A DNA stretch of 64,000 nucleotides from Escherichia coli (GTDB lineage: Bacteria; Pseudomonadota; Gammaproteobacteria; Enterobacterales; Enterobacteriaceae): assembly GCF_044324875.1 (NCBI RefSeq), contig NZ_CP172185.1; one strand, 5' to 3'. This document shows, piece by piece, positions 1 to 32,610 of the stretch (its first letter is position 1; the number at the start of each line of letters is the position of its first letter). The translations under genes were made by a program, and so were the position numbers. Below the pieces are notes generated by a model. The model did not search any database. It worked only from the letters and a program-made list of their open reading frames with translations, and had not been told where the DNA came from.

Positions 1-931
1 ATCGGCACGCGGTGATATTTCCCTGACCTATTTCGAGTACGGTACGCTGTCGGCGTTGTGGCTGTTCAAGCAGGCACAACTTGACGTGGTGATTCTGGAA
101 GTAGGGCTGGGCGGTCGTCTGGACGCAACCAATATTGTCGATGCCGATGTCGCGGTAGTAACCAGTATTGCGCTGGATCATACCGACTGGCTGGGGCCAG
201 ATCGCGAAAGCATTGGTCGCGAGAAAGCAGGCATCTTCCGCAGCGAAAAACCGGCAATTGTCGGTGAGCCGGAAATGCCTTCTACCATTGCTGATGTGGC
301 GCAGGAAAAAAGTGCACTGTTACAACGTCGGGGCGTTGAGTGGAACTATTCCGTCACCGATCATGACTGGACGTTTAGCGATGCTCACGGCACGCTGGAA
401 AATCTGCCGTTGCCGCTTGTCCCGCAACCGAATGCCGCAACGGCGCTGGCGGCACTGCGTGCCAGCGGGCTGGAGGTCAGTGAAAATGCCATTCGCGACG
501 GGATTGCCAGCGCAATTTTGCCGGGACGTTTCCAGATTGTGAGCGAGTCGCCACGTGTTATTTTTGATGTCGCGCATAATCCACATGCGGCGGAATATCT
601 CACCGGGCGTATGAAAGCGCTACCGAAAAACGGGCGCGTGCTGGCGGTTATCGGTATGCTACATGATAAAGATATTGCCGGAACTCTGGCCTGGTTGAAA
701 AGCGTGGTTGATGACTGGTATTGTGCGCCACTGGAAGGGCCGCGCGGTGCCACGGCAGCACAACTGCTTGAGCATTTGGGTAACGGCAAATCATTTGATA
801 GCGTGGCGCAGGCATGGGATGCCGCAATGGCGGACGCTAAAGCGGAAGATACCGTGCTGGTGTGTGGTTCGTTCCACACGGTCGCACATGTCATGGAAGT
901 GATTGACGCGAGGAGAAGCGGTGGCAAGTAA
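1..931 (+). CDS. folC: folylpolyglutamate synthase / dihydrofolate synthase, 3' portion (5' end upstream of window)
   Basis: Reading frame open from the left edge to the stop at 931; track gives the C-terminal 291 aa ending ...IDARRSGGK; Mur-ligase-like C-terminal domain; followed by dedD-cvpA-purF as in E. coli. Confidence 0.9.
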   Translation, partial: SARGDISLTYFEYGTLSALWLFKQAQLDVVILEVGLGGRLDATNIVDADVAVVTSIALDHTDWLGPDRESIGREKAGIFRSEKPAIVGEPEMPSTIADVAQEKSALLQRRGVEWNYSVTDHDWTFSDAHGTLENLPLPLVPQPNAATALAALRASGLEVSENAIRDGIASAILPGRFQIVSESPRVIFDVAHNPHAAEYLTGRMKALPKNGRVLAVIGMLHDKDIAGTLAWLKSVVDDWYCAPLEGPRGATAAQLLEHLGNGKSFDSVAQAWDAAMADAKAEDTVLVCGSFHTVAHVMEVIDARRSGGK

Positions 932-1571
932 GTTTCAGAATCGGTTAGTGGGCACGATCGTGCTGGTGGCGCTGGGGGTGATTGTACTTCCAGGGCTGCT
1001 GGACGGGCAGAAAAAACATTATCAGGATGAGTTCGCGGCTATCCCGCTGGTGCCAAAAGCAGGCGATCGCGATGAGCCTGATATGATGCCAGCCGCCACC
1101 CAGGCGCTGCCGACGCAGCCGCCGGAAGGCGCAGCGGAAGAGGTGCGGGCAGGTGATGCCGCAGCACCGTCGCTCGATCCGGCCACTATTGCAGCCAATA
1201 ACACCGAGTTTGAACCGGAACCTGCACCGGTCGCCCCACCGAAGCCGAAACCGGTGGAGTCGCCTAAACCGAAGGTTGAAGCACCACCTGCGCCGAAGCC
1301 GGTCGTGGAAGAAAAAGCAGCGCCAACGGGTAAAGCCTATGTTGTACAACTGGGCGCACTGAAAAATGCCGATAAAGTGAATGAGATTGTCGGTAAGCTG
1401 CGCGGTGCCGGTTATCGGGTTTATACGTCGCCATCCACGCCAGTGCAGGGTAAAATTACCCGTATTCTGGTTGGGCCAGATGCCTCGAAAGATAAGCTGA
1501 AAGGTTCGCTGGGTGAGTTGAAGCAACTTTCTGGCTTAAGTGGTGTGGTAATGGGCTACACGCCGAATTAA
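903..1571 (+). CDS. dedD: cell division protein DedD (SPOR domain)
   Basis: 222 aa ORF with N-terminal TM segment, Pro/Ala/Lys-rich linker and C-terminal SPOR-like domain; start ambiguous: ATG at 903 or GTG at 921, which sits 5 nt after an AGGAG at 911-915. Confidence 0.85.
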   Translation: MTRGEAVASKFQNRLVGTIVLVALGVIVLPGLLDGQKKHYQDEFAAIPLVPKAGDRDEPDMMPAATQALPTQPPEGAAEEVRAGDAAAPSLDPATIAANNTEFEPEPAPVAPPKPKPVESPKPKVEAPPAPKPVVEEKAAPTGKAYVVQLGALKNADKVNEIVGKLRGAGYRVYTSPSTPVQGKITRILVGPDASKDKLKGSLGELKQLSGLSGVVMGYTPN

Positions 1572-1578
1572 TACGGTC

Positions 1579-1850
<272 letters not shown>

Positions 1851-1882
1851 ATTGCACGATGCCGCAAAGGCATAAAAAGTCG

Positions 1883-1918
1883 ATGGCGTTGAATATTTTT
1901 TCAGCGCCATTTTTATTG
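1883..1918 (+). terminator. candidate rho-independent terminator after dedD
   Basis: Imperfect hairpin ggcgttgaa...ttcagcgcc followed by a T-rich run (atttttatt). Confidence 0.45.
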
Positions 1919-1939
1919 ATGCGTGGGAAGGAAATCCCT

Positions 1940-1955
1940 ACGCAAACGTTTTCTT
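1940..1955 (+). promoter_or_regulatory. PurR operator (pur box) overlapping the cvpA-purF promoter
   Basis: acgcaaacgttttctt matches the 16 bp PurR box consensus ACGCAAACGTTTTCNT; a -10-like tagaat follows at 1963-1968, about 45 bp before the cvpA start. Confidence 0.8.
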
Positions 1956-2011
1956 TTTCTGTTAGAATGCGCCCCGAACAGGATGACAGGGCGTAAAATC
2001 GTGGGACACAT

Positions 2012-2500
2012 ATGGTCTGGATTGATTACGCCATAATCGCGGTGATTGCTTTTTCCTCTCTGGTTAGCCTGATCCGCGGCTTTGTTCGTGAAGCGTTATC
2101 GCTGGTGACATGGGGTTGTGCTTTCTTTGTTGCCAGTCATTACTACACTTACCTGTCAGTCTGGTTTACGGGCTTTGAAGACGAACTGGTTCGAAATGGG
2201 ATTGCCATCGCGGTACTGTTTATCGCTACCCTGATCGTTGGTGCTATCGTGAACTTCGTGATAGGCCAGTTGGTAGAGAAAACGGGGTTGTCAGGCACCG
2301 ATCGGGTGCTGGGCGTCTGTTTCGGTGCGTTGCGCGGTGTGTTGATTGTTGCCGCCATTCTCTTCTTTCTCGACTCCTTTACCGGGGTGTCGAAAAGCGA
2401 AGACTGGAGCAAATCACAGCTGATCCCCCAGTTCAGTTTTATCATCAGATGGTTTTTTGATTATCTGCAAAGCTCGTCAAGTTTCTTGCCCAGAGCGTAA
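2012..2500 (+). CDS. cvpA: colicin V production / membrane protein CvpA
   Basis: 162 aa multi-TM protein immediately upstream of purF, the conserved cvpA-purF-ubiX arrangement. Confidence 0.9.
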   Translation: MVWIDYAIIAVIAFSSLVSLIRGFVREALSLVTWGCAFFVASHYYTYLSVWFTGFEDELVRNGIAIAVLFIATLIVGAIVNFVIGQLVEKTGLSGTDRVLGVCFGALRGVLIVAAILFFLDSFTGVSKSEDWSKSQLIPQFSFIIRWFFDYLQSSSSFLPRA

Positions 2501-2536
2501 GTGCTCTGAGATGTGGCTTAACGAGGAAAAAGACGT

Positions 2537-4054
2537 ATGTGCGGTATTGTCGGTATCGCCGGTGTTATGCCGGTTAACCAGTCGATTTATGATGCCTTAA
2601 CGGTGCTTCAGCATCGCGGTCAGGATGCCGCCGGCATCATCACCATAGATGCCAATAACTGCTTCCGTTTGCGTAAAGCGAACGGGCTGGTGAGCGATGT
2701 ATTTGAAGCTCGCCATATGCAGCGTTTGCAGGGCAATATGGGCATTGGTCATGTGCGTTACCCTACGGCTGGCAGCTCCAGCGCCTCTGAAGCGCAGCCA
2801 TTTTACGTTAACTCTCCGTATGGCATTACGCTTGCCCACAACGGCAATCTGACCAACGCGCATGAGTTACGTAAAAAACTGTTTGAAGAAAAACGCCGCC
2901 ACATCAACACCACTTCCGACTCGGAAATTCTGCTTAATATCTTCGCCAGCGAGCTGGACAACTTCCGCCACTACCCGCTGGAAGCCGACAACATTTTCGC
3001 CGCCATCGCTGCTACAAACCGCTTAATCCGCGGCGCGTATGCCTGTGTGGCGATGATTATCGGCCACGGTATGGTTGCTTTCCGCGATCCAAACGGGATT
3101 CGTCCGCTGGTACTGGGAAAACGTGATATTGACGAGAACCGCACAGAATATATGGTCGCTTCCGAAAGCGTTGCGCTCGATACACTAGGCTTTGATTTCC
3201 TGCGTGACGTCGCGCCTGGCGAAGCGATTTACATCACTGAAGAAGGGCAGTTGTTTACCCGTCAATGTGCTGACAATCCGGTCAGCAATCCGTGCCTGTT
3301 TGAGTATGTATACTTTGCTCGCCCGGACTCGTTCATCGACAAAATTTCCGTTTACAGCGCGCGTGTGAATATGGGCACGAAGCTGGGCGAGAAAATTGCC
3401 CGCGAATGGGAAGATCTGGATATCGACGTGGTGATCCCGATCCCGGAAACCTCGTGTGATATCGCGCTGGAAATTGCTCGTATTCTGGGCAAACCGTACC
3501 GTCAGGGCTTCGTTAAAAACCGCTATGTAGGCCGTACCTTCATCATGCCGGGTCAGCAGCTGCGTCGTAAGTCCGTGCGCCGTAAACTGAACGCCAACCG
3601 CGCCGAGTTCCGCGATAAAAACGTCCTGCTGGTCGACGACTCCATCGTCCGTGGCACCACTTCTGAGCAGATTATCGAGATGGCACGCGAAGCCGGAGCG
3701 AAGAAAGTGTATCTCGCTTCTGCGGCACCGGAAATTCGCTTCCCGAACGTTTATGGTATTGATATGCCGAGCGCCACGGAACTGATCGCTCACGGTCGCG
3801 AAGTAGATGAAATTCGCCAGATCATCGGTGCTGACGGGTTGATTTTCCAGGATCTGAACGATCTGATCGAAGCCGTTCGCGCTGAAAACCCGGATATCCA
3901 GCAGTTTGAATGCTCGGTGTTCAACGGCGTCTACGTCACCAAAGATGTTGATCAGGGCTACCTCGATTTCCTCGATACTTTACGTAATGACGACGCCAAA
4001 GCCGTGCAACGTCAGAACGAAGTGGAAAATCTCGAAATGCATAACGAAGGATGA
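2537..4054 (+). CDS. purF: amidophosphoribosyltransferase
   Basis: 505 aa; N-terminal MCGIVGI (Ntn amidotransferase Cys1) and PRTase-type C-terminal domain. Confidence 0.97.
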
Positions 4055-6858: not shown

Positions 6859-7545
6859 ATGTTGTATGGGTTTTCAGGTGTTATTTTACAGGGTGCGCTC
6901 GTCACGCTGGAGCTGGCTATCAGCTCTGTAGTGCTCGCTGTAATCATCGGTTTAATTGGCGCTGGCGGTAAGCTCTCGCAAAATCGGCTTTCGGGCCTTA
7001 TTTTCGAAGGCTACACCACGCTGATTCGTGGCGTGCCGGACTTGGTGTTGATGCTGCTAATTTTCTACGGTTTGCAGATTGCACTAAACACGGTGACGGA
7101 GGCGATGGGCGTCGGGCAGATTGATATTGATCCGATGGTCGCAGGTATTATCACTCTCGGTTTTATCTACGGTGCTTACTTTACCGAAACGTTCCGTGGC
7201 GCGTTTATGGCTGTGCCGAAAGGGCATATAGAGGCGGCGACGGCGTTCGGTTTTACTCGTGGGCAAGTGTTTCGGCGGATCATGTTTCCGGCGATGATGC
7301 GTTACGCCCTGCCAGGCATTGGCAACAACTGGCAGGTGATCCTCAAATCTACCGCTCTGGTTTCGTTACTTGGCCTGGAAGATGTGGTCAAAGCCACGCA
7401 GCTGGCAGGCAAAAGTACCTGGGAACCGTTCTATTTCGCCATCGTTTGTGGCGTGATTTACCTGGTTTTCACCACCGTTTCCAATGGTGTGCTGCTGTTC
7501 CTTGAGCGCCGCTACTCCGTGGGTGTGAAGAGGGCTGACCTGTGA
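6859..7545 (+). CDS. hisQ: histidine/lysine/arginine/ornithine ABC transporter permease
   Basis: 228 aa polytopic permease; its stop overlaps the hisM start. Confidence 0.93.
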   Translation: MLYGFSGVILQGALVTLELAISSVVLAVIIGLIGAGGKLSQNRLSGLIFEGYTTLIRGVPDLVLMLLIFYGLQIALNTVTEAMGVGQIDIDPMVAGIITLGFIYGAYFTETFRGAFMAVPKGHIEAATAFGFTRGQVFRRIMFPAMMRYALPGIGNNWQVILKSTALVSLLGLEDVVKATQLAGKSTWEPFYFAIVCGVIYLVFTTVSNGVLLFLERRYSVGVKRADL

Positions 7546-8258
7546 TCGAAATCTTACATGAATACTGGAAACCGTTGTTGTGGACCGACGGTTATCGCTT
7601 TACTGGCGTGGCGATCACCCTGTGGCTGCTGATTTTGTCGGTAGTGATAGGCGGAGTTCTGGCGCTGTTTCTGGCGATTGGTCGTGTCTCCAGTAATAAA
7701 TACATCCAGTTTCCAATCTGGTTATTTACCTATATTTTTCGCGGTACGCCGCTGTATGTTCAGTTGCTGGTGTTCTATTCCGGCATGTATACGCTGGAGA
7801 TTGTTAAGGGGACCGAGTTTCTTAACGCTTTCTTCCGCAGTGGCCTGAACTGTACCGTGCTGGCGCTTACGCTTAACACCTGCGCTTACACTACCGAGAT
7901 TTTTGCTGGGGCAATCCGTTCAGTGCCGCATGGGGAAATTGAAGCCGCCAGAGCCTATGGCTTCTCGACCTTTAAAATGTATCGCTGCATTATTTTGCCA
8001 TCGGCGCTGCGTATTGCGTTACCGGCCTACAGCAACGAAGTGATCCTGATGCTGCATTCTACTGCGCTGGCGTTTACGGCCACGGTGCCGGATCTGCTGA
8101 AAATTGCCCGTGATATCAACGCCGCGACGTATCAACCTTTTACCGCCTTCGGCATTGCCGCGGTGCTCTATTTAATCATCTCTTATGTCCTGATCAGCCT
8201 CTTTCGCAGAGCGGAAAAACGCTGGTTGCAGCATGTGAAACCTTCTTCAACGCACTGA
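7542..8258 (+). CDS. hisM: histidine/lysine/arginine/ornithine ABC transporter permease
   Basis: 238 aa polytopic permease; 4 bp overlap with hisQ. Confidence 0.93.
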
Positions 8259-8265
8259 GAATACG

Positions 8266-9039
8266 ATGTCCGAGAATAAATTAAACGTTATCGATTTGCA
8301 CAAACGCTACGGCGAACACGAAGTGCTGAAAGGGGTCTCACTGCAAGCGAATGCCGGAGATGTCATAAGCATCATCGGATCGTCGGGATCGGGGAAAAGT
8401 ACCTTTCTGCGCTGCATTAACTTCCTCGAAAAACCGAGTGAAGGGTCGATCGTGGTCAATGGCCAGACGATCAATCTGGTGCGCGACAAAGATGGTCAAC
8501 TCAAAGTCGCCGATAAAAATCAGCTGCGCTTACTGCGCACACGCCTGACGATGGTATTCCAGCACTTCAATCTCTGGAGCCACATGACGGTGCTGGAAAA
8601 CGTCATGGAAGCGCCGATTCAGGTGTTGGGCCTGAGCAAGCAGGAAGCGCGCGAGCGGGCGGTGAAGTATCTGGCAAAAGTTGGGATAGACGAACGTGCG
8701 CAGGGGAAATATCCGGTGCACCTGTCCGGTGGTCAGCAACAGCGTGTTTCCATCGCAAGGGCGCTGGCAATGGAACCGGAAGTTTTACTATTTGATGAAC
8801 CTACCTCGGCGCTCGATCCTGAACTGGTAGGCGAAGTGTTACGTATTATGCAGCAATTGGCAGAAGAGGGGAAAACCATGGTGGTAGTGACTCACGAAAT
8901 GGGCTTTGCTCGCCATGTTTCTACTCACGTCATTTTCCTCCATCAGGGGAAAATAGAAGAAGAGGGCGCGCCAGAACAGTTATTTGGTAACCCGCAAAGC
9001 CCTCGTCTGCAACAGTTCCTTAAAGGTTCGCTGAAATAA
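8266..9039 (+). CDS. hisP: histidine/lysine/arginine/ornithine ABC transporter ATP-binding protein
   Basis: 257 aa; Walker [13 protein letters not shown] signature LSGGQQQRV, Walker [12 protein letters not shown]. Confidence 0.96.
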
Positions 9040-9044
9040 TTTCC

Positions 9045-9076
9045 TCTCCGGTGGCTAACGCTGCCGGAGTATTTTC
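9045..9076 (+). terminator. candidate rho-independent terminator after hisP
   Basis: Hairpin ctccgg...ccggag followed by tatttt. Confidence 0.5.
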
Positions 9077-9235
9077 AAGGGGAATTTGCGAGTCCGCTTC
9101 CGCTGAAATGTAAAAGTTGCAGTCCGCTAAAAATAGTTCTGAATTCGCTGTCCAAAGATAAAAACTGCCTGCTGCATTGGGTGTAAATCGTGGTTATTGT
9201 CGCGTCATCTTAAATTTGAGGGGTGACGGAACGCC

Positions 9236-10126
9236 ATGACAATATCGACAACTTCCACGCCGCATGATGCGGTATTTAAATCTTTTTTACGCCATCCAGA
9301 CACCGCGCGGGATTTTATTGATATTCATCTTCCCGCGCCGCTGCGCAAACTGTGTGATTTAACGACGCTTAAACTGGAACCAAACAGTTTTATTGATGAA
9401 GACCTGCGGCAATATTATTCCGACCTCTTGTGGTCTGTGAAAACGCAGGAGGGAGCGGGTTATATTTATGTGGTGATAGAGCACCAAAGTAAGCCAGAGG
9501 AATTAATGGCTTTTCGCATGATGCGCTATTCCATTGCGGCGATGCAAAACCATCTTGATGCGGGTTATAAAGAGCTTCCATTAGTGATCCCGATGCTGTT
9601 TTATCATGGTTGCAGAAGCCCTTATCCATATTCACTCTGCTGGCTTGATGAATTTGCCGAGCCTGCGATTGCCCGCAAAATTTATTCATCGGCTTTTCCG
9701 CTGGTGGATATTACCGTGGTGCCGGATGACGAGATTATGCAACATCGCAAAATGGCGCTGTTGGAGTTAATTCAGAAACATATTCGTCAGCGCGATCTGT
9801 TGGGATTAGTCGACCAAATTGTTTCGCTGCTAGTTACAGGGAACACTAATGACAGACAGCTAAAAGCCCTGTTTAATTATGTATTACAAACGGGAGATGC
9901 CCAGCGTTTCCGTGCATTTATTGGTGAGATAGCGGAACGCGCACCACAAGAAAAGGAGAAACTGATGACCATTGCTGACAGATTACGTGAAGAAGGCGCA
10001 ATGCAGGGCAAACACGAAGAAGCCCTGCGTATTGCTCAGGAGATGCTGGAGAGAGGTTTAGACAGAGAGTTAGTTATGATGGTGACCCGACTTTCACCAG
10101 ACGATCTTATCGCGCAAAGCCACTAA
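9236..10126 (+). CDS. rpnB: recombination-promoting nuclease RpnB (transposase_31 / PD-(D/E)XK family, YhgA-like)
   Basis: 296 aa; N-terminal HDAVFKSFL motif typical of Rpn/YhgA-like proteins; position matches yfcI downstream of hisP. Confidence 0.8.
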
Positions 10127-10173
10127 TTCTGTAACACCAGGAGTTAACTGGCGGATGTTTGCAGTAAACCACA

Positions 10174-11067
10174 TCAGCGAACAACATCCGCCAGCGCCTC
10201 TTCTAAATCGTACCAGCGAAACGCAAAACCCGCTTCTTCCAGCCGTTTAGGCAATGCTCGTTGTCCACCTAATACCAGCACTGAAGATTCGCCCATTAAC
10301 AGTCGAATGGCGGTCACAGGGACGCGCAAAATGGCCGGGCGATGCAGCGCATGACCGAGCGCATGGGCAAATTGTTCATTGCGTACCGGGTAGGGCGAAA
10401 CCATATTAAATGGTCCACGCAGCTCGTTATCCAGCAGCCAGAGAATGCCGTTGACCATATCATCAATATGAATCCAGGCCAGATACTGCCGACCGGAGCC
10501 AATCGGCCCGCCCAGACCAAGACGAAACGGCGGCAGCATTTTACCGAGAATACCGCCATCCGGTGCCAGCACTACGCCGGTACGCAGCAGGCACACTCGC
10601 GTTTTGTCACTTTGCGCCCGGCAGGCAATCTCTTCCCAGCGGGCGCAGAGTTTATGAGTAAATTCGTTATGCGGCGGTTCCTCTTCGGTAACCACCACTT
10701 CACCTAAGTCGCCATAATAGCCCGTTGCCGAGCCGGAAATGAGTACCGACGGCGGCGTGTCGCTGGCATTAATCAAATCGACCAGTTTTTGCGTGATATT
10801 CCAGCGGCTTTGGCAGAGACGCTCTTTTTGCTCGTGAGTCCAGCGTTTATCAGCAATCGGCTCTCCGGCCAGGTTGATTACCGCATCAACGCCGTTGAGG
10901 TTACTTTGATCGGCAAGCCCTTGCCATAGTGTCACCCGAGGGCCGAGAACGGAACTGGCTTTCTGCGGGTTACGCGTCACTACCGTGATTTGATGGCCCA
11001 GATCCAGCAAACGCGGAATCAAATGGCGACCAATTAATCCCGTCCCTCCGGTGATCACTATGTTCAT
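10174..11067 (-). CDS. yfcH: NAD-dependent epimerase/dehydratase family protein (SDR-like)
   Basis: 297 aa; N-terminal [16 protein letters not shown]ossmann motif. Confidence 0.8.
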
Positions 11068-32558: not shown

Positions 32559-32610
32559 CCGAATTTCGATTAACGCTCAGTCTCTGACTGAGAAAACTGG
32601 AAGCATGCTA

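Follow-up and report, generated by a model that had tools for sequence, protein, structure and literature searches.

rpnB (yfcI), a Resident Nuclease Gene Between hisP and yfcH in Escherichia, Very Probably Works as a Single-Gene Toxin-Antitoxin Pair

The gene at positions 9236..10126 (+ strand) of the window, the 64,000-nucleotide stretch of Escherichia coli contig NZ_CP172185.1 analyzed here, is rpnB (yfcI), very probably a long-standing chromosomal gene of Escherichia that works as a one-gene toxin-antitoxin pair, with the full-length protein (RpnB_L) as nuclease toxin and a 53-aa product of an internal start (RpnB_S) as antitoxin. The locus is already known: the family, the missing transposon ends, and the internal antitoxin have all been published. 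Mildly new here, and descriptive only, are the allele census, the deletion scar, and the structural variation at the rpnB/yfcH junction. The first-pass annotation had presented rpnB as a domesticated, transposase-like gene that promotes recombination; this interpretation is partly supported, being right in part and out of date, and the label “transposase-like recombination gene” is better replaced by [quoted passage not shown]

The rpnB open reading frame starts with ATG at 9236, ends with TAA at 10124-10126, and is intact over its 296 codons (RpnB_L, 296 aa) in the list of reading frames, in agreement with the earlier identification of the gene as rpnB/yfcI beside the his transporter. E. coli SC418 (NZ_LR778147.1) is 100% identical to the window across 1.6-kb and 2.1-kb stretches spanning rpnB, and its RefSeq record labels the gene, at identical coordinates and between hisP and yfcH, “recombination-promoting nuclease RpnB.” The encoded protein shares 293 of 296 residues (99%) with K-12 RpnB, from which it differs by A74V, I118L, and E272D; judged by sequence, the gene is the ortholog of K-12 rpnB and a member of the Rpn/YhgA family. 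The assignment to the YhgA/transposase_31 PD-(D/E)XK family was borne out by a profile search, in which PF04754 (Transposase_31) matched residues 8-209 (9257..9862, + strand), the YhgA-like domain with a PD-(D/E)XK core, over profile positions 1-202 of 203 (E 2.1e-91; 305 bits, cut-off 21), and TIGR01784, the Rpn family model, was passed at 188 bits (cut-off 52). Two NCBIfam models, one for RpnA (469 bits) and one named “ISNCY family transposase” (NF007418; 463 bits), scored below their 583-bit cut-offs. The top-ranking matches in the PDB, designer pentatricopeptide-repeat proteins (E down to 9e-14), were rejected as an artifact of summation: a weak helical match of 30 residues recurs about 10 times, and the individual E values are 50-500. 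It is the RpnB_S helices (9998-10120, residues 252-287) that draw these inflated whole-sequence E values, with no single stretch significant; they are a trap for automated annotation.

The residues known to be functionally important in RpnA, a K-12 paralog, span 9266..9730 (+ strand) of the window and are invariant in the alignment of RpnB with K-12 RpnA: D11 (9266-9268), D63 (9422-9424), E82 (9479-9481), the family-specific Q84 (9485-9487), R94 (9515-9517), and D165 of the PDDE motif (9728-9730). In RpnA, the D11A, D63A, E82A, and Q84K substitutions abolish all three phenotypes, R94A abolishes the recombination phenotype alone, and D165A makes the enzyme hyperactive in vitro (Kingston et al., 2017, PMC5350276). 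Divalent-cation-dependent DNA endonuclease activity in vitro has been reported for RpnA only (PMC5350276). Over-expression of K-12 RpnB induces the SOS response and stops growth (PMC10400941; PMC5350276), and this SOS induction and toxicity suggest that RpnB, too, is a DNA endonuclease.

Where does the antitoxin reside? All five K-12 rpn genes carry an internal start (Zhong et al., 2023, PMC10400941), and in the window the corresponding signal is plain: a consensus Shine-Dalgarno sequence, AAGGAG (9953..9958, + strand), lies 6 nt before an ATG at 9965, so that ribosome-binding site and start together span 9953-9967. The first-pass annotation overlooked this internal antitoxin gene. The reading frame that opens here, rpnB_S (9965..10126, + strand), is in frame with rpnB, shares its stop codon, and encodes 53 aa beginning at Met244. 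This methionine is identified as the published RpnB_S start by three observations: (i) counted from Met244, position 29 is the Asp of K-12 RpnB that was changed to a stop in the “RpnBS D29” mutant (PMC10400941); (ii) residues 1-48 of RpnA_S in PDB entry 7th0 align to RpnB residues 244-295, a match weak by sequence (E 1.1e-3) and exact in register; and (iii) RpnA and the RpnB of the window agree at K240, E241, and M244, the positions at which mutations were made to eliminate RpnA_S. The pairwise alignment of RpnA and RpnB is, moreover, unbroken through the tail, and the 17-mer that forms the internal-start context, AAGGAGAAACTGATGAC, does not vary among four E. coli alleles or any of the Escherichia loci retrieved, which include those of all four other Escherichia species in which rpnB was found. 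A scan for internal sigma-70 promoters returned weak candidates, the best matching 8 of 12 positions at 9853-9880; start sites determined by dRNA-seq are cited inside all rpn genes (PMC10400941). RefSeq records for SC418 and for MG1655-derived genomes carry only the full-length rpnB coding sequence and leave the 53-aa product, which has experimental support, unannotated; annotation at this locus should add it.

The functional case comes from K-12. Both RpnB_S and RpnB_L are detected when expressed from the K-12 chromosome; RpnB_L*, in which the internal start is disabled, inhibits growth more strongly than does the wild-type gene; and RpnB-dependent SOS induction is blocked by RpnB_S and not by RpnA_S (PMC10400941). 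In the case of RpnA, the small protein prevents DNA from being cleaved in vitro and complexes with its full-length partner through the tail common to both (PMC10400941). Toxicity and specific neutralization by RpnB_S, as shown for K-12, are assumed to carry over to the window allele, which is three residues apart. The proposed mechanism runs as follows. Translation from the first ATG (9236) would yield RpnB_L, a PD-(D/E)XK nuclease that presumably damages DNA; translation from the second start would yield RpnB_S, which is the C-terminal helical tail alone. By analogy with RpnA, RpnB_S would attach to this tail within RpnB_L and inhibit the nuclease, and the fit between the two would depend on variable four-residue modules in the first helix. 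An excess of RpnB_S would keep RpnB inactive until it is released under some condition, possibly phage infection, whereupon DNA cleavage by the freed nuclease could limit phage spread.

We infer that the physiological role of RpnB is phage defense by nuclease release; protection against T-even phages has been demonstrated for the plasmid paralog RpnP2 only (PMC10400941). The genes around rpnB are housekeeping genes and do not form a defense island, neither RpnB_L nor RpnB_S matched any PADLOC-DB model, and a search of the 2024-2026 literature found nothing on Rpn mechanism beyond the 2023 work. Several points count against the explanation favored here: these surroundings, the lack of a PADLOC-DB match, the demonstration of phage protection for RpnP2 only, the weakness of the promoter candidates for a short internal transcript, the weak sequence similarity of the tail to RpnA_S, and the absence of rpnB from 12% of E. 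coli genomes.

The pattern of constraint along the gene is uneven. Pooled over ten alleles, pN/pS is 0.05 for codons 1-243 vs. 0.36 for the RpnB_S part, and variable residue columns number 22 of 247 in the N-terminal part vs. 23 of 57 in the RpnB_S part: purifying selection acts strongly on the nuclease domain, and the RpnB_S tail is fast-evolving and length-variable. Allele alignments locate a hypervariable four-residue module site at A255-G258, AMQG in the window (9998..10009, + strand). Long alleles have RNDG-LILG in place of AMQG and are thus 12 bp longer, and this indel, 11 residues after Met244, falls within the published range for the variable four-residue repeats, which were located 8-20 residues past the internal Met (PMC10400941). 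Two tail classes result, REEG-AMQG (short) and REEG-RNDG-LILG-KREE (long). The short class, which is also that of the window allele and of K-12, accounts for 3,522 (65%) of the 5,426 complete E. coli genomes in a census, and the long one for 1,176 (22%). Both classes also occur outside E. coli, the short in E. albertii and Escherichia sp. E1V33 and the long in E. whittamii and Escherichia sp. MOD1-EC7003; on an unlikely reading, taken up below, this distribution would point to a polymorphism long kept in balance, or else to transfer from one species to another, with a phage factor as driver. These population data (constraint, tail indel, a fixed site, and loss from 670 genomes by a deletion that left a scar) fit the toxin-antitoxin model. 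A second place in rpnB where a four-residue unit is doubled lies in the nuclease domain: RpnB of E. albertii NBRC 107761 has a tandem 12-bp duplication at codons 129-132, reading PYPYPYPY vs. PYPY after residue 128.

Could rpnB instead encode a transposase-like nuclease that has been domesticated and serves to drive RecA-independent recombination and the horizontal transfer of genes? This is the reading closest to the first-pass annotation, and it has an experimental basis in that, when RpnB is over-expressed, a conjugal assay registers a 19-fold rise in RecA-independent recombination and the SOS response is induced (PMC5350276); the Pfam family name, Transposase_31, points the same way. Deletion of the four active genes, rpnA, rpnB, rpnC, and rpnD, however, left the basal frequency of recombinants unchanged (PMC5350276), so the recombination claim stands as an over-expression phenotype and not as a demonstrated role. 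The over-expression constructs, moreover, unknowingly co-expressed RpnB_S (PMC10400941), and recombination is the expected by-product of any DNA-breaking toxin. Descent from a mobile element is likewise unsupported, since no autonomous transposase is known with the PD-(D/E)XK fold of RpnB. A dedicated recombination function is accordingly improbable. Much less probable still is that rpnB is a decaying, functionless relic that happens to be intact in this strain. The gene is dispensable, since 12% of genomes have lost it and an IS4-like element disrupts it in strain 3985, but a relic would not be expected to show a nuclease-domain pN/pS of 0.05, a frame intact in ten alleles from five species, conserved catalytic residues and internal start, and, in K-12, detectable RpnB_L and RpnB_S (PMC10400941).

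The toxin-antitoxin reading also holds that the gene is an old resident, and its distribution bears this out. Among the 5,426 complete E. coli genomes, 4,755 carry rpnB, always on the chromosome, at the same locus, and with a median of one copy. In a collection of 72,556 plasmid records, rpnB at 95% identity or more occurs in five, of 0.37-4.9 Mb, four of them above 1.4 Mb, and these five appear to be chromosomal sequence deposited under a plasmid label; other full-length plasmid homologs reach at most ~63% identity, and the wider family is present on 4,845 of the records. A scan of one genome per species found rpnB in four other species at 94-97% protein identity. The order hisP-rpnB-yfcH-folX is kept in Escherichia sp. 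E1V33, Escherichia sp. MOD1-EC7003, and E. whittamii, and in E. albertii hisP is followed by rpnB and then by the contig end. Residence at the same site with high identity across Escherichia species marks rpnB as an old member of the genus complement and not a recent arrival. The reading frame was unbroken in all ten alleles examined, from five species. Two further records deserve mention. In E. coli strain 3985, rpnB is split after about codon 135 by the IS4-like ISVsa5 (locus positions 766-3006), and RefSeq calls both halves pseudogenes. A 380-bp contig of the Novosphingobium sp. BW1 assembly (NZ_VIRF01000009.1; coverage 0.9) holds the last (3′) third of rpnB, 99% identical at the protein level, together with the rpnB-yfcH junction hairpin, in which one loop base is unlike that of other Escherichia copies; this contig is almost certainly E. 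coli contamination of the Novosphingobium assembly.

What is found where rpnB is missing? An empty junction is present in 670 of 5,426 E. coli genomes (12%). Alignment of occupied and empty alleles shows that a 1,002-bp segment (9146..10147), comprising rpnB plus the 90 bp before it and the 21 bp after it, is swapped for 27 bp, ATCTATATTTATTCATCAGCGTTTCCG. Together with the adjoining left hairpin arm, this replacement reads ATTTATTCATCAGCGTTTCCGCTGGCGGATGTT, a 29/33 match to rpnB codons 149-159 (9680..9712, + strand), so that a 33-bp copy of this internal part of the gene persists in genomes that lack the rest. Because a piece of rpnB lies within it, the empty site is a deletion scar and not an unoccupied target. 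At the right-hand join of the deletion, rpnB CTGGTGGATATT and the hairpin arm CTGGCGGATGTT are alike at 10 of 12 positions; the scar may therefore have arisen by deletion between short imperfect repeats. That the empty site represents the ancestral state was considered and rejected, given the rpnB-derived scar and the presence of the gene at this site in all other Escherichia species sampled.

The search for transposon ends covered repeats of both orientations across 8700-10700, within the 500-bp flanks of the gene, and at the boundaries of the indel, with no result above chance. Between the two 500-bp flanks, the best inverted match scored below the mean of shuffled sequences, and at the rpnB flanks and the segment boundaries (9146 and 10147) no direct repeat longer than 4 bp was present; the earlier remarks that the gene has no flanking inverted repeats or target duplications and is not an active element hold, the latter also in view of its fixed chromosomal locus in 4,755 genomes. 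One candidate pair, 20 nt long and 75% complementary (9026-9045 and 10163-10182), does bracket rpnB; it was set aside, since its arms lie in the hisP and yfcH stop regions and persist in genomes without rpnB. rpnB is not a transposable element, and its reading as an insertion-sequence transposase or remnant lodged between hisP and yfcH, for which the presence/absence polymorphism (670 E. coli genomes without the gene) and the frequency of homologs on plasmids (4,845 records) might speak, is effectively refuted by the lack, both beside the ORF and at the indel boundaries, of terminal inverted repeats and target duplications, the single copy at a constant site, the restriction of close plasmid matches to records that resemble chromosomes, the occupation of the same site in other Escherichia species, and the deletion origin of the empty site, which contains the 33-bp internal piece.

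rpnB is preceded by the genes of the his transporter operon, hisQ, hisM, and hisP, the last of which ends at 9039; a terminator-like hairpin (9046..9069, + strand; -22.8 kcal/mol, z = -4.5) followed by TATTTTC parts rpnB from this operon. Downstream, in convergent orientation, are yfcH (10174-11067, minus strand) and then folX, yfcG, and yfcF. The “large inverted repeat” at which rpnB was said to end, at its junction with yfcH, is real and lies in a stable fold, but it is only 12 bp long, begins 21 nt past the rpnB stop, and is kept where rpnB is lost. Found by repeat search and folding, this hairpin (10148..10194) is a perfect 12-bp inverted repeat with arms at 10148-10159 and 10183-10194 and a 23-nt loop; the stop codon of yfcH (10174-10176) falls inside it, and the 96-nt segment 10120-10215 folds at -26 kcal/mol (z = -3.6). 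It is present in rpnB-less alleles and in other Escherichia, and its retention in genomes without rpnB indicates that it belongs to the yfcH-side backbone and is not an end of rpnB. A role as a canonical intrinsic terminator was rejected: the loop has 23 nt (14 nt after extra pairing) and there is no U-tract. Downstream of the hairpin, no T-run is found on the + strand and only TTAACTCCTGGTGTT on the - strand. A scan for terminator patterns left the 12-bp repeat uncalled, its - strand call being a weaker 8-pair stem (10193-10175) with 3 G-C pairs that takes in part of the right arm. In MG1655, yfcH and rpnB form an overlapping convergent transcript pair (PMC12288877); three of the five K-12 rpn genes are found in the published MG1655 “excludon” list, as rpnA-bioH, rpnB-yfcH, and rpnC-panC (PMC12288877).

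An Rfam search of 8900-10400 gave no match even at E values up to 1. Elsewhere in the window, Rfam models matched at two places. The REP-derived nucleoid-associated RNA naRNA4 (RF02564) has two tandem matches, at 1634-1704 and 1725-1795 (+ strand; 83 and 81 bits), which are placed between ubiX and argT by offset from the SC418 locus; the nuoG RNA cis-regulatory motif (RF01748) is matched at 32561-32603 (+ strand; 50 bits, gathering score 33), consistent with the presence of the nuo operon in the window.

A different rearrangement of the rpnB/yfcH junction is present in 69 E. coli genomes, IAI39 and CE10 among them. In these, ~3 kb that encode a trans-sulfuration-family enzyme and nhaC are inserted between the two genes (E. 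coli IAI39 locus 7082-10138). Lost to the insertion are the final ~9 codons of rpnB, whose tail now ends in SPEELLNQKQ, along with the 12-bp hairpin and the terminal codons of yfcH; the new junction has a different, longer hairpin (TTTCATGCCTGGCA...TGCCAGGCATGAAA).

A bolder proposal, that the rpnB/yfcH junction is a small hotspot of structural change at which two incompatible RpnB_S specificity classes are kept side by side, is in our view unlikely. On this proposal, the rearrangements themselves (the 1-kb deletion, the 3-kb IAI39-type insertion, and the 12-bp duplications) may be by-products of cutting by RpnB_L. The census, with 65% of genomes short, 22% long, and 12% deleted with a scar, amounts to a natural experiment on a possible defense role of chromosomal RpnB and on possible cross-incompatibility of the tails.

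How does the gene compare with known systems? Likeness to insertion-sequence transposases extends to the name and to the patchy spread of the wider family; RpnB differs from them in its fold, which is PD-(D/E)XK and not DDE, in being without terminal repeats or target duplications, and in its single fixed locus. The plasmid-borne RpnP2_LS belongs to the same family and has the same gene-within-a-gene layout (PMC10400941), but phage protection is reported for RpnP2, and RpnB, unlike it, is strictly chromosomal. Closest of all is K-12 RpnB (YfcI, b2305; Zhong et al., 2023, PMC10400941; Kingston et al., 2017, PMC5350276), which has the same locus (hisP-rpnB-yfcH), length, internal Shine-Dalgarno sequence and ATG, and short variable block; the functional data all come from K-12, and the window allele differs by the three substitutions given above, of which E272D falls at RpnB_S position 29, an Asp in K-12. 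K-12 RpnA (YhgA) is a paralog encoded at a separate locus; its tail has four residues fewer than that of RpnB at the variable site, and RpnA_S fails to neutralize RpnB (PMC10400941). The two proteins are nonetheless 67% identical and share every catalytic residue that has been tested as well as K240, E241, and M244 at the internal start, and each gene has a convergent downstream neighbor, bioH for rpnA and yfcH for rpnB; RpnA, with a crystal structure of RpnA_S (PDB 7th0), is the biochemically and structurally characterized member against which RpnB can be read.
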